Of a stretch of DNA of 5,587 nucleotides, positions 1 to 5,365 are shown in pieces. Origin of the DNA: a virus (Duplodnaviria > Heunggongvirae > Uroviricota > Caudoviricetes). Position numbers and translations under genes: made by a program. The notes under the pieces are model-generated. The model saw only the letters and a program-made list of their open reading frames with translations. It was not told the DNA's origin and ran no database searches. The stretch is from IMG/VR virus record IMGVR_UViG_2700989170_000003. The stretch is one strand, 5' to 3'. Each line of letters opens with the position of its first letter. Position 1 is the stretch's first letter.

Positions 1-203
1 CTTCTGATGCCATTCTATTTCAGGAAGGAGTGTCCGTTAAACTCAGGCTACCTCAGTCAGCGCTGGAACGACGAGAAGCCAGAAACCATTCAACCACAAT
101 CCAGACCATCATCCGCAATCACCGTATCGAAAACTGGCTATGTGTTTTTCGACAGGTGAACCATGAAATCAAAAATCAAATCGCTACTGGTCGCTGGTTA
201 TAA
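1..203 (+). CDS. Possible 3' end of an upstream gene running off the left edge; frame unresolved
   Basis: Two + frames are open from the window edge: frame 3 to a TAA at 201-203 and frame 1 to a TGA at 157-159. No motif or homolog recognised, so this is weak ORF-only evidence. Confidence 0.25.
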   Translation, partial: SDAILFQEGVSVKLRLPQSALERREARNHSTTIQTIIRNHRIENWLCVFRQVNHEIKNQIATGRWL

Positions 204-266: not shown

Positions 267-2147
267 ATGAGGCCAAGTGAACTTAGCGACCTGCTTTGGG
301 CGCAGGTTGACAGGGTGGCTCCGCACCTGTTGCCAAACGGCAAGATAGAGGGGCATGAGTGGGTTGCCGGTAACGTCAACGGTGACAAGGGAAACAGCCT
401 TAAGGTCAACCTTATCGGCAAGAAAAAATGGGCTGATTTCGCTGAGGGAGACGGCGGTGACATGCTTGATTTGTGGATGGCATGTCGTGGAATTAACCTG
501 CATCAGGCTATGCAGGAAGCGAAAGCATTTCTCGGTATCAAGGATGACGATCACCATTTCGATGCCAGACGTGAGAAGAAATTCTCCAGACCTGATCGTA
601 AGAAAATCGCCCGCTACGTTACCAGAACAGAATCCCATCTTGAGTACCTGCAATCGCGTGGCATATCGCCAGAAGTCGTAAAGCGCTACGAGGTTGTCAG
701 CGGCAAGGTGTGGAATGGAGAACGAGAACTGGATGCTCTGGTGCTTCCGTACAAACGCGATGGTGAGTTGTTGCAGGTCAAGCGAATCAGCACTGAGCGC
801 CCGGACGGGAAGAAAGTCATTATGGCAGAAGGTGATTGCGAACCTTGCCTGTTCGGATGGCAGGCTCTGGACGCTGGCGTGAGGGTGGTTGTGCTTTGCG
901 AAGGCGAAATTGATTGTATGAGCTATGCGCAATACGGCATCTCGGCGTTATCCGTGCCGTTTGGTGGCGGGAAAGGCGCTAAGCAACAGTGGATTGAGTT
1001 TGAGTATCACAACCTCGACAGGTTTGAGGAAATATTCATCTCGATGGACGTTGATGATGTTGGTCGTGAAGCCGCAAGGGAAATCGTAAGCCGACTCGGT
1101 GAACATCGTTGCCGTCTTGTTACTCTGCCGTACAAAGACATCAACGAATGCCTGATGAACGGTGTTACCGAGGATGAAATCTGGCAGTACATCGGCACGG
1201 CATCCTACTTCGATCCTGAAGAACTCTACAGCGCGCGAGAGTTTTACCAGGACACTATCAACGCTTTCTACGGCAAGCAGCAGTATCTGTTTAATCCACC
1301 GTGGGAATCTCTCGCAGATAAATTCCAGTTCCGTGAGGCCGAGTTGACGCTGGTCAATGGTGTGAACGGTCACGGAAAAACGGAGGTTGTCGGGCATATG
1401 GCACTTGAGGCAATGCGTCAGGGTGTGAAGACGTGCATCGCGTCACTTGAGCTGAAGCCAGGCATTCTCCTTAAGCGACTTACCCGTCAGGCAACGTGCT
1501 GCAAGATGCCGCCAGTGCTGGAAATTGACTCTGCATTTAAATTTTATGACGAAAGACTTTGGGTGTTTGGCCTGACCGGAACGGCGAAAGCCGACAGGCT
1601 GATCGAAATATTCGACTACGCTCGCCGCCGATACGGCATCCAGTTATTCATCATCGACAGCCTGATGAAATGTGGCATAGGCGACGATGACTATAACGGG
1701 CAGAAGGCGTTTGTTGACTCGATTTGCGACTTCAAAAACAAAACAAACTCCCACGTCATTCTCGTTACTCACTCGCGAAAAGGAGACAGCGAAGAAAAAC
1801 CAACCGGGAAAATGGACGTAAAAGGCTCTGGAGCGATAACAGACCTGACAGACAACCTTTTCATCATCTGGCGTAACAAGGCTCGCGAGAGAGCGTTACA
1901 GAGAGTTCAGAGTGGTGAAAAGATGTCAGAGAAGGACGAACAGCTACTGGCATCTCCGGCATCTGTTTTGATGCTTGAAAAACAACGTAACGGTGAAGGT
2001 TGGGAAGGTGGTGTCCCGTTGTTCCTTGACGAGCAATCGCACCAGTTCCTGCAACTTGAATCAGGATCGCCATATAGCTACATCGCCAATATGCCGAAAT
2101 CGGAATATGACGAGGCGTGGCGACAGGAAAACGTGACAGAGTATTAA
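267..2147 (+). CDS. Bifunctional DNA primase-helicase, T7 gp4-like (TOPRIM primase domain plus RecA-fold/DnaB-like helicase domain)
   Basis: 626-aa ORF; ATG at 267 is the first in-frame start after a stop at 243-245, with GAGGG 4 nt upstream. TOPRIM motifs VVLCEGEID (about nt 883-909) and SMDVDD (about 1039-1056); Walker A GVNGHGKT (1359-1382); Walker B-like LFIIDSL; KGSGAITDLTDN helicase motif. By-eye colinear with T7 gp4. Confidence 0.85.
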   Translation: MRPSELSDLLWAQVDRVAPHLLPNGKIEGHEWVAGNVNGDKGNSLKVNLIGKKKWADFAEGDGGDMLDLWMACRGINLHQAMQEAKAFLGIKDDDHHFDARREKKFSRPDRKKIARYVTRTESHLEYLQSRGISPEVVKRYEVVSGKVWNGERELDALVLPYKRDGELLQVKRISTERPDGKKVIMAEGDCEPCLFGWQALDAGVRVVVLCEGEIDCMSYAQYGISALSVPFGGGKGAKQQWIEFEYHNLDRFEEIFISMDVDDVGREAAREIVSRLGEHRCRLVTLPYKDINECLMNGVTEDEIWQYIGTASYFDPEELYSAREFYQDTINAFYGKQQYLFNPPWESLADKFQFREAELTLVNGVNGHGKTEVVGHMALEAMRQGVKTCIASLELKPGILLKRLTRQATCCKMPPVLEIDSAFKFYDERLWVFGLTGTAKADRLIEIFDYARRRYGIQLFIIDSLMKCGIGDDDYNGQKAFVDSICDFKNKTNSHVILVTHSRKGDSEEKPTGKMDVKGSGAITDLTDNLFIIWRNKARERALQRVQSGEKMSEKDEQLLASPASVLMLEKQRNGEGWEGGVPLFLDEQSHQFLQLESGSPYSYIANMPKSEYDEAWRQENVTEY

Positions 2148-2176: not shown

Positions 2177-2209
2177 AGGCCTGCTGGTAATCGCAGGCCT
2201 TTTTATTTG
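2177..2209 (+). terminator. Intrinsic terminator, lambda tR2-like
   Basis: Perfect 8-bp stem AGGCCTGC (2177-2184) / GCAGGCCT (2193-2200), 8-nt loop, then TTTTTATTT. Lies between the replication gene and ninB, where lambda has tR2. Confidence 0.7.
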
Positions 2210-2844: not shown

Positions 2845-3011
2845 TTGACCCAAATCGAAGTTACGAACAAGAAAGCGTCGAGCGGGCTTTAACGTGCGCT
2901 AACTGCGGTCAGAAACTGCATGTGCTGGAAGTTCACGTGTGCTCCGATTGCTGCGCAGAACTGATGAGCGATCCGAATAGCTCAATGTACGAGGAAGAAG
3001 ACGATGAATGA
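2841..3011 (+). CDS. ninF: NinF-like small Cys-rich protein
   Basis: GTG start at 2841 overlaps the ninE stop (GTGA), with GAGGA about 7 nt upstream. 56-aa product [42 protein letters not shown]... resembles lambda NinF. Absent from the ORF track because of the GTG start and short length. Confidence 0.78.
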
Positions 3012-3726
3012 GTTAATAAATGGCAATGCCATCAAAATGACAAGCATTGAAATCGCTGAGTTGGTGGGTAAGCGTCATGACAATGTGAAACGTACCATCG
3101 AAACGCTGGCTAAAAATGGTGTTATCCGGCTTCCTCAAATTGAGGTTTCCGAAAGAATCAATAACTTAGGGTTCAATGTTCAGTACGAGCATTACGTCTT
3201 CGAGGGCGAACAAGGTAAGCGAGACAGTATTGTCGTTGTTGCCCAGTTGTCGCCAGAGTTCACCGCTCGCCTTGTTGACCGCTGGCGAGAGCTTGAAGAA
3301 GCTGCGGTTAATATCCCCAAAACGCTACCGGAAGCGTTGCGCCTTGCTGCCGATCTTGCTGAGCAGAAAATGCAACTGGAAAACCAGCTCGCAATTGTCG
3401 CACCTAAAGTTGAGTTTGCCGATCGCGTTGGCGAGGCCAGCGGAATTTTGATTGGAAACTTTGCAAAGGTTGTTGGTATTGGTCAAAACAAACTGTTTGC
3501 GTGGATGCGTGATCACAAAATCCTTATTGCTTCAGGTTCCCGGCGCAATGTGCCAATGCAGGAATATATGGATCGCGGCTATTTCACAGTGAAAGAAACA
3601 GCGGTCAACACAAATCACGGAATACAGATATCGTTCACCACAAAAATCACCGGGCGCGGTCAACAGTGGCTGACCAGAAAGTTGCTCGATAACGGAATGC
3701 TGAAAGTAACAGGGGAGGCTGCTTAA
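3004..3726 (+). CDS. Antirepressor-like protein: N-terminal Rha-family regulatory domain plus C-terminal KilAC (Ant C-terminal) domain
   Basis: 240-aa ORF. N-terminus TSIEIAELVGKRHDNVKRTIETL is the characteristic Rha/Bro-N-like signature; the C-terminal half (ALRLAADLAEQKMQLENQLA...KLFAWMRDHKILI...) is KilAC-like. ATG 3004 lies inside the ninF 3' end, with GAGGA about 10 nt upstream. Confidence 0.82.
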   Translation: MNELINGNAIKMTSIEIAELVGKRHDNVKRTIETLAKNGVIRLPQIEVSERINNLGFNVQYEHYVFEGEQGKRDSIVVVAQLSPEFTARLVDRWRELEEAAVNIPKTLPEALRLAADLAEQKMQLENQLAIVAPKVEFADRVGEASGILIGNFAKVVGIGQNKLFAWMRDHKILIASGSRRNVPMQEYMDRGYFTVKETAVNTNHGIQISFTTKITGRGQQWLTRKLLDNGMLKVTGEAA

Positions 3727-4059
3727 TGGCTAACCTACGCAAAGAAGCACGCGGCAGAGAATGCCAGGTACGTATTTACGGCGTATGCAATGGCNNNNNN
3801 NNNNNNNNNNNNNNNNNNNNNNNNNNNNNNNNNNNNNNNNNNNNNNNNNNNNNNNNNNNNNNNNNNNNNNNNNNNNNNNNNNNNNNNNNNNNNNNNNNNN
3901 NNNNNNNNNNNNNNNNNTGCATGGGCTTGTAGTGCGTGTCACGATGAAATCGACCGACGCACCCATAATCTCGACAACAAAGACGCCAGACTTTACCACC
4001 TCGAAGGCGTGATCAGAACGCAGGCGATACTGCTGAGGGAGGGGAAGATTAAGTCATGA
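3726..4059 (+). CDS. ybcO: YbcO-like (DUF1364) putative metal-binding nuclease; CDS interrupted by an N-run
   Basis: N-terminal MANLRKEARGRECQVRIYGVCNG and C-terminal ACSACHDEIDRRTH...EGKIKS both resemble DLP12 YbcO. The two parts are in different frames across the 123-N gap. Start overlaps the upstream stop (TAATG); stop overlaps the rusA start. Confidence 0.72.
3795..3917. other. Run of 123 N (assembly gap or masked bases) inside the ybcO-like gene
   Basis: Direct observation: n at every position 3795-3917. Confidence 0.99.
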
Positions 4060-4418
4060 ACGAATATCAGTTTGTGCTTCCATACCCGCCGTCGGTGAAT
4101 ACCTACTGGCGAAGACGGGGAAGCCAATATTACATAAGCGATAAAGGCCAGAAATACCGAAAAGACGTTCAGCAAATCATCCGCCAACTCAAGTTAGACA
4201 TTTTCACCAAATCACGACTCCGCATCAAAGTCATCGCAGACGTTCCAGACTCCCGCCGCCGCGACCTCGACAACATCCTGAAAGGTTTACTCGACTCCCT
4301 TATCCACGCCGGATTTGCGGAAGACGACGAGCAATTCGATGACATTCGCGTAATTCGTGGTGTGAAAGTACCAGGCGGACGGCTTGGAATAAAAATCACC
4401 GAACTGGAGAACGCATGA
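4056..4418 (+). CDS. rusA: RusA Holliday-junction resolvase
   Basis: 120-aa product; motifs PPSVNTYW, RRRDLDN and GGRLGIKITE are colinear with E. coli RusA. ATG 4056 overlaps the ybcO stop (ATGA), with GAGGGAGGGG upstream. Confidence 0.93.
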   Translation: MNEYQFVLPYPPSVNTYWRRRGSQYYISDKGQKYRKDVQQIIRQLKLDIFTKSRLRIKVIADVPDSRRRDLDNILKGLLDSLIHAGFAEDDEQFDDIRVIRGVKVPGGRLGIKITELENA

Positions 4419-4603
4419 ACGCCACAATTCAAACGATACCAGAGCTTCTTATCCAGACACGAGGCAATCAGACCGAAGTGGCAAGGATGCTTTCCTGCGC
4501 AAGAGGAACAGTGCTCAAGTACAACCGAGACAGCAAAGGCGAGCGTCACGTAATAGTTAACGGCGTCCTGATGGTCAAACAGGGCAAGAGGGGAAGACGA
4601 TGA
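4415..4603 (+). CDS. ninH: NinH (small HTH protein)
   Basis: 62-aa product; ...GNQTEVARMLSCARGTVLKYNRD...VIVNGVLMV matches lambda NinH from memory. ATG 4415 overlaps the rusA stop (ATGA), with GGAGA 4 nt upstream. Confidence 0.85.
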   Translation: MNATIQTIPELLIQTRGNQTEVARMLSCARGTVLKYNRDSKGERHVIVNGVLMVKQGKRGRR

Positions 4604-5223
4604 GACTAGAAAGCGTAGCTAAATTTCATTCGCCAAAAAGCCCGATGATGAGCTACTCACCACGGGCTACGGCTTCTGACTCTCTTTCCGGTACTGATGT
4701 GATGGCTGCTATGGGGATGGCGCAATCACAAGCCGGATTCGGCATGGCTGCATTCTGTGGTAAGCACGAACTCAGCCAGAACGACAAACAAAAGGCTATC
4801 AACTATCTGATGCAATTTGCACACAAAGTATCGGGGAAATACCGTGGTGTGGCAAAGCTCGAAGGAAATACTAAGGCAAAGGTACTGCAAGTGCTCGCAA
4901 CATTCGCTTATGCGGATTATTGCCGTAGTGCCGCGACGCCGGGCGCAAGATGCAGAGATTGCCACGGTACAGGCCGTGCGGTTGATATAGCCAAAACAGA
5001 GCAGTGGGGGAGAGTTGTTGAGAAAGAGTGCGGAAGATGCAAAGGTGTCGGCTATTCAAGAATGCCAGCAAGCGCTGCATATCGCGCTGTAACGATGCTA
5101 ATCCCAAACCTTACCCAACCCACCTGGTCACGCACTGTTAAGCCGCTGTATGACGCTCTGGTGGTGCAATGCCACAAAGAAGAGTCAATCGCAGACAACA
5201 TTTTGAATGCGGTCACACGTTAG
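4600..5223 (+). CDS. Q: Late-gene antiterminator Q (lambda-type)
   Basis: 207-aa product MRLESVAKFHSPKSPMMS...CRDCHGTGRAVD...CGRCKGVGYSR is near-identical to lambda Q as I recall it, including the zinc-finger Cys motifs. ATG 4600 overlaps the ninH stop (ATGA). Confidence 0.95.
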   Translation: MRLESVAKFHSPKSPMMSYSPRATASDSLSGTDVMAAMGMAQSQAGFGMAAFCGKHELSQNDKQKAINYLMQFAHKVSGKYRGVAKLEGNTKAKVLQVLATFAYADYCRSAATPGARCRDCHGTGRAVDIAKTEQWGRVVEKECGRCKGVGYSRMPASAAYRAVTMLIPNLTQPTWSRTVKPLYDALVVQCHKEESIADNILNAVTR

Positions 5224-5265: not shown

Positions 5266-5306
5266 TTGACTTTTTGAATAAAGTTGGGTAAATTTGACTC
5301 AACGAT
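5266..5306 (+). promoter_or_regulatory. Late promoter pR' with qut (Q-utilisation) site
   Basis: -35 TTGACT (5266-5271), 17-bp spacer, -10 TAAATT (5289-5294), then the pause-inducing AACGAT element (5301-5306). This matches the lambda pR'/qut arrangement immediately downstream of Q. Confidence 0.78.
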
Positions 5307-5327: not shown

Positions 5328-5365
5328 AAAGCCCTGAGTTAATAGCTCGGGGCTTTTTGCGTTTT
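5328..5365 (+). terminator. Intrinsic terminator about 30-60 nt downstream of the pR' start (tR'-like)
   Basis: 8-bp stem GCCCTGAG (5331-5338) / CTCGGGGC (5346-5353) with one G-U pair, 7-nt loop, then TTTTTGCGTTTT; an AAA tract sits upstream. Confidence 0.55.

Follow-up and report, generated by a model that had tools for sequence, protein, structure and literature searches.

The N-terminal domain (residues 1-95) of the primase-helicase described here is probably derived from the zinc-binding domain of DnaG-type (CHC2) primases, with its metal lost, and, judging from its sequence and from a structural model, would have kept a template- and primer-holding role in an active enzyme. The 626-residue protein is encoded by a complete open reading frame (ORF) within a 5,587-nt stretch of viral DNA (IMG/VR record IMGVR_UViG_2700989170_000003; hereafter, the window) representing the early-right region of a lambdoid phage or prophage. 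The gene itself is already known as an ordinary, annotated primase/helicase, and its product is, as predicted from sequence similarity, a bifunctional primase-helicase of the kind represented by T7 gp4 and Twinkle. PHROG 239 ('DNA primase/helicase') matched it with an E-value of 2e-170, and a phmmer search of the PDB aligned residues 191-539 to T7 gp4 (E 6e-23), with a further match to Twinkle (E 2e-13), leaving the N-terminus unaligned. The feature under study comprised codons 25-78 (window 339-500), where an earlier note on this DNA had proposed a primase zinc ribbon with every metal ligand replaced. In DnaG, T7 gp4, T4 gp61 and plant Twinkle, recognition of the template and hand-off of the primer are regarded as requiring the zinc-binding domain, and zinc ribbons are known to lose Cys residues in the course of evolution.

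Structure prediction, profile-profile alignment and a curated model provided three independent lines of evidence, all pointing to the DnaG (CHC2) type. An AlphaFold2 model of residues 1-200, generated from a 24-sequence alignment, reached predicted local distance difference test (pLDDT) scores of 91-95 over residues 1-90, and the predicted topology of residues 1-95 consisted of two helices, five short strands forming a ribbon, and two more helices. Since the profile of the N-domain had no sequence match in the PDB, a comparison of folds was needed. Foldseek matched the predicted model to solved DnaG zinc-binding domains (1d0q, 2au3) and to metazoan Twinkle, the best matches among viral predicted structures being phage 'zinc finger CHC2-type' primases. 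When a 300-sequence family profile was compared by hhalign with three DnaG zinc-binding domains, two of which had been checked against the PDB, residues 26-93 aligned to residues 30-97 of E. coli DnaG (E 8.3e-6, probability 83.5%) in a register that placed the DnaG ligands C40, H43, C61 and C64 opposite G35, N38, D57 and E60, respectively. The NCBIfam dnaG model (TIGR01391) was matched in part, residues 39-143 corresponding to profile positions 41-155 with 34 bits against a cut-off of 283.6 bits. With respect to zf-CHC2 (PF01807), the predicted fold is that of a zinc ribbon with flanking helices, but both the Cys-His-Cys-Cys ligands and a match to the curated Pfam model are missing. As in DnaG-type primases and T7, the N-domain precedes, across a flexible linker, an RNA-polymerase (primase catalytic) domain (RPD) of the TOPRIM type.

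Taken together, the hhalign alignment, the partial dnaG match and the high-confidence predicted structure resembling solved DnaG domains bore out the proposal of the earlier note that the N-terminus is related to primase zinc-binding domains and that every ligand is replaced. Its description of 339-500 was likewise accurate in that C73 is the sole Cys within residues 1-180 and no CxxC pair occurs there. DFAEG does stand in place of CFGCG, whereas the first knuckle, given as A/V/N, reads G-N-V-N; and of the likeness claimed to both DnaG and T7, only that to DnaG was retained. The T7 Cys4 ribbon was dropped in favor of DnaG as a template for the N-domain, the alignment to T7 residues 1-56 being of low confidence, and a Cys4 ribbon of the Prim_Zn_Ribbon type (PF08273) at the N-terminus found neither a Pfam match nor Cys pairs. 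Separately, residues 41-94 (window 387-548) gave a weak NCBIfam match to positions 1591-1645 of the TraI model TIGR02760 (E 3e-4), and a related Cys-free domain may thus exist in the C-termini of conjugative relaxase/helicase TraI proteins.

The loss of the ligands extends to the whole family. When 1.84 billion representative proteins were searched with a profile built from residues 1-99, matches came from 4,974 clusters at E<=1e-3, and 2,202 of them reached E<=1e-10. Among 300 family members, the position of E. coli DnaG C40 (35 here) was Gly in 298 and that of C61 (57) was Asp in 296, while the position of H43 (38) was occupied by N (138), H (46), A (26), D (25), S (20) and others, and that of C64 (60) by E (157), T (67), S (26), A (15), G (14) and others. 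Some twenty other positions were near-invariant, including P23, G25, E31, W32, G39, G42, S44, L45, W55, F58, G64, D65, L69 and W70. A genome scan of one genome per species, using 4-sequence search patterns that did not contain the ligand positions, yielded 80 loci in enterobacteria, Xenorhabdus, Arsenophonus, Variovorax, Bartonella, Legionella, Pseudomonas, Achromobacter and Methylomonas, and in metagenome-assembled genomes of Verrucomicrobia, Geobacteraceae, Ignavibacteriales and others. G35 and D57 were present in all 81 aligned rows (the 80 loci and the window). Cys was found at or near the ligand positions in none of the 300 members and none of the 80 loci, which give no sign of a Cys4 motif overlooked through mis-alignment; the clusters inspected were the best 150 of the 4,974, and Cys-bearing intermediates may exist among the weaker matches. 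The Cys residues that some relatives do possess sit at buried hydrophobic core positions (33, 48 and 56) and restore no knuckle. In a Pfam scan of ten longer members, a helicase followed the N-domain in all ten and a Toprim match was found in eight. A tblastn search of phage genomes showed T7-like primases matching only from residue ~105 on, the N-domain being covered in 96 of 2,122 matching records. The N-domain family is therefore large and conserved, has no Pfam model in the copy searched, and is not a decaying remnant: all four ligand residues are gone in thousands of relatives whose primase active site appears, from its residues, to be intact.

Some members deviate in length. The long members P0196, P0214, P0250, P0282 and P0244 carry either a LAGLIDADG intein-like insert in the helicase (P0196) or a 200-300-residue insert, the latter located between the N-domain and the Toprim fold. 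Loci from E. coli ECMA0423 (L002) and Shigella flexneri SFBU1023 (L003), both at 3001-4860, encode an identical N-domain in an ORF of 619 rather than 626 residues; in these two loci, a simple ORF rule picked up no O-like ORF immediately upstream. A homologue search with residues 1-200 yielded only fragments and misassembled chimeras, and odd Pfam tags on P0011, P0018 and P0041 turned out to stem from fused tail or ejection proteins.

A metal-free N-domain is the simplest and most likely reading of these replacements, and the zinc-free version envisaged in the earlier note accordingly fits best, while its second suggestion, an alternative metal, is disfavored. Under that second view, the site would still hold a metal such as Mg2+, Mn2+ or Fe2+, with D57, E60 and N38 or H38 supplying oxygen and nitrogen ligands, as the invariance of D57, the predominance of Glu at position 60 (157/300) and the occurrence of His at position 38 (46/300) might suggest. 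We regard this as very unlikely: Gly, a residue unable to ligate, is invariant at the first ligand position, and two other positions tolerate Ala, Gly, Ser or Thr, position 60 being T, S, A or G in ~40% of members and position 38 being A, G or S in ~20%. Only D57 is fixed, and a single conserved carboxylate does not suffice to make a structural metal site, so that the pattern fits neither a four-ligand nor even a three-ligand site. We also considered a CEPC motif at residues 191-194 (window 837-848) as a displaced zinc site. It lies in the RPD just before the TOPRIM fold and, with C191 present in 29 and C194 in 39 of 72 sequences, is common yet not conserved; its location and poor conservation led us to reject it as unlikely to bind metal. 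Without metal, the fold would probably be held by a conserved hydrophobic and aromatic core (W32, L45, W55, F58, L69 and W70), and D57 could possibly bridge the two former knuckles by hydrogen-bonding to the backbone of the first.

Next to this altered N-domain, the catalytic center is preserved. A 72-sequence profile of residues 1-335 was aligned by hhalign to residues 1-260 of T7 gp4, the sequence of which had been checked against PDB 6n7i, with a probability of 99.6% and an E-value of 1e-24. The T7 gp4 residues K122, K128, E157, D207, D209 and D237 correspond to K172, K182, E212, D261, D263 and D291, conserved in 69, 60, 71, 70, 71 and 71 of the 72 sequences, respectively. K172 and K182/K183 belong to the N-terminal subdomain of the RPD, and the four acidic residues to its TOPRIM fold (207-296), which Pfam Toprim_2 matched at residues 209-296. 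These residues give no sign of an inactivated primase and, because they are conserved across the family, primase activity is expected. Template-directed primer synthesis in T7 depends on the zinc-binding domain, which acts via a flexible linker and also in trans (PMC2910064).

Several observations nonetheless weigh against the N-domain being a working, metal-free relative of the DnaG domain. At E<=10, no Pfam family matched residues 1-120, zf-CHC2 and Prim_Zn_Ribbon included, and an hmmsearch of all PDB sequences with the N-domain profile at the same threshold was likewise empty. The structure is a prediction, and AlphaFold2 may lean on DnaG folds in its training set. For the residues reported to contact and read the template in T7, namely D31, H33 and a cluster of aromatics (PMC10557236), there are no clear equivalents here, because the alignment to the T7 ribbon is of low confidence. 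Finally, metazoan Twinkle, a gp4 relative whose N-terminal region resembles a zinc-binding domain and which is the nearest precedent for ligand loss, lacks three of the four Cys and has lost primase activity too (PMC7231222); the family studied here is unlike Twinkle in that its catalytic residues are kept. The absence of Pfam and PDB sequence matches to residues 1-120, along with an hhalign probability of just 83.5%, would also suit the view that residues 1-95 form an unrelated small alpha/beta domain, the AlphaFold2 model and the alignment by eye then both being artifacts. Set beside the three lines of evidence that point to DnaG, this is the least probable of the explanations weighed.

According to the reading we favor, that of a metal-free DnaG-type descendant, two of the former ligand sites are now invariant, as Gly (G35) and Asp (D57), the other two being a polar residue that varies (N38) and a further variable one (E60). 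Tethered by the flexible linker to a catalytically intact TOPRIM RPD and an SF4 helicase, the domain would hold the single-stranded DNA template and the nascent primer against the RPD of the same or a neighboring hexamer subunit. The phage, equipped with an O-like initiator, would bring its own helicase and primase in replacement of the host DnaB and DnaG.

The fold might alternatively have been kept but repurposed as a docking or loading module that does not read the template, priming then being sequence-unspecific or, as the earlier note also envisaged, partner-dependent; the domain could, for example, bind the C-terminal domain of the upstream O-like initiator or regulate the loading of the hexamer on DNA, as proposed for Twinkle, whose Cys-depleted N-terminal domain governs loading and processivity rather than priming. 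In most loci, the gene immediately upstream encodes an initiator, 64 of the 80 upstream proteins being linked by BLAST, and while the N-terminal DNA-binding domains of these initiators differ (Phage_rep_O, DUF1376 or HTH_36), 33 of the 80 share a C-terminal domain of ~80 residues equivalent to residues 184-263 of the O protein of phage mEp043. A Pfam scan of ten upstream proteins returned no match for this shared region. In the window, all 20 phage megablast matches listed start at nt 56, within the last ~35 codons of the O-like gene; the initiator tail therefore travels with the primase-helicase gene, and window positions 1-56 look like a mosaic joint that keeps the two together. A C-terminal domain shared among initiators and a tail that accompanies the primase-helicase gene suggest a conserved contact between the two proteins. 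The shared domain may be a module recruiting this helicase family, and the Cys-free N-domain is one candidate docking site for it. Repurposing nevertheless strikes us as unlikely, though well within consideration: the initiator C-terminal domain was detected in just 33 of 80 loci, whereas the core of the N-domain is near-invariant in all of them, the catalytic residues of the primase are strongly conserved, and an enzyme of this class would be expected to need a template-holding domain (PMC2910064). Template holding and docking are not mutually exclusive.

Comparison with known systems places the protein between several of them. The DnaG zinc-binding domains (zf-CHC2; 1d0q and 2au3) have C/H/C/C ligands where G, N, D and E are found here, and DnaG is a free-standing primase whereas this N-domain is part of a protein fused to an SF4 helicase. 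T7 gp4 has the same succession of a small N-terminal domain, an RPD with TOPRIM and an SF4 helicase, the RPD and helicase showing clear homology (E 1e-22 to 1e-24), and its catalytic residues are all retained in our protein, but its N-terminus is a short zinc-binding Cys4 ribbon (residues 1-54) rather than a longer, DnaG-like domain without Cys ligands. T7 also needs no separate origin initiator, in contrast to the present gene, which follows an O-like initiator in a lambdoid module. The slot is that of the lambda O/P module (cII, O-like initiator, replication gene, ninB). Lambda P, however, is a loader for host DnaB, with host DnaG doing the priming, and the slot is filled here by what is predicted to be a self-contained primase-helicase.

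Table 1. Coordinates of the primase-helicase gene, its domains and neighboring features in the window.
Feature	Position	Strand	Evidence or remark
O-like replication initiator gene, 3' end	7..159	+	mEp043 annotation: Phage_rep_O 'replication protein' directly upstream
Primase-helicase, complete ORF, 626 residues + stop	267..2147	+	ORF list
N-terminal domain, residues 1-95	267..551	+	Predicted DnaG-type zinc-binding-domain fold, without metal ligands
Stretch of ligand-replacing codons	369..446	+	G35 369-371, N38 378-380, D57 435-437, E60 444-446
Flexible linker, residues ~96-110	552..596	+	pLDDT 60-70 for residues 91-110; alignment variable, gapped
RPD, residues ~111-300	597..1166	+	hhalign to T7 gp4; Pfam Toprim_2
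SF4 (DnaB/gp4-type) helicase domain, residues ~355-594	1329..2048	+	Pfam AAA_25, DnaB_C; T7 gp4 helicase alignment
Terminator-like hairpin, GC-rich, then T-run	2177..2200	+	Consensus scan, pattern match only
PR'-like promoter match	5266..5294	+	Downstream of Q
Strong terminator-like hairpin	5328..5356	+	Downstream of Q

The helicase domain listed in Table 1 carries a Walker A motif (GHGKT, 368-372) and a Walker B motif (FIIDS, 461-465). On the + strand of the window, the 3' end of the O-like initiator gene and, after 108 nt, the primase-helicase ORF are followed by ninB, ninE, ninF, a Roi/Ant-like gene, a NinG-like ORF, rusA, ninH, Q and a PR'/tR'-like promoter-terminator pair. The primase-helicase thus occupies the 'P' position of the lambdoid replication module, and in Stx2 phages such as Min27 and phi24B the gene carries the positional label 'P'. 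The primase-helicase gene is 98% identical in nucleotide sequence to its counterpart in mEp043, gp55, a 'toprim domain-containing protein', and the translated initiator tail resembles the end of mEp043 O, only a few substitutions apart. Among the matches listed, the closest phage genomes were those of mEp043 (98% nucleotide identity), Sf101, Stx2 phages such as Min27 and phi24B, epsilon34 and g341c. The hairpin 30 nt 3' of the primase-helicase stop codon, before ninB, lies at the position of lambda tR2, and the promoter- and terminator-like elements downstream of Q correspond to the annotated PR'/qut region of mEp043. A run of N at 3795-3917 masks the middle of the NinG-like ORF (3726-4059), which cannot be read through.

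A full-text search of the literature did not find a Cys-less zinc-binding domain described in phage primase-helicases, which is not proof of absence. The broader proposal, that the primase-helicases of a very large clade in phages and prophages use a metal-free derivative of the DnaG zinc-binding domain to prime in a template-directed manner, is one we put forward tentatively, at a little under even confidence. As a further possibility, the same N-domain might serve as the docking site for the C-terminal domain conserved among the upstream initiators and so couple recognition of the origin with the loading of the primase-helicase. The domain is common in Stx-converting and other enterobacterial prophages, where it is unannotated in the Pfam copy searched, and the combination of Cys loss with a seemingly intact primase, in thousands of clusters that include Stx-converting phages, would offer a clean and cheap test of what zinc contributes. 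A family devoid of the four ligands yet endowed with the fold and the catalytic center would separate the role of the fold from that of the metal. If the proposal is true, zinc would be dispensable for this class of domain, and the clade would provide a natural system in which to ask what the metal contributes.
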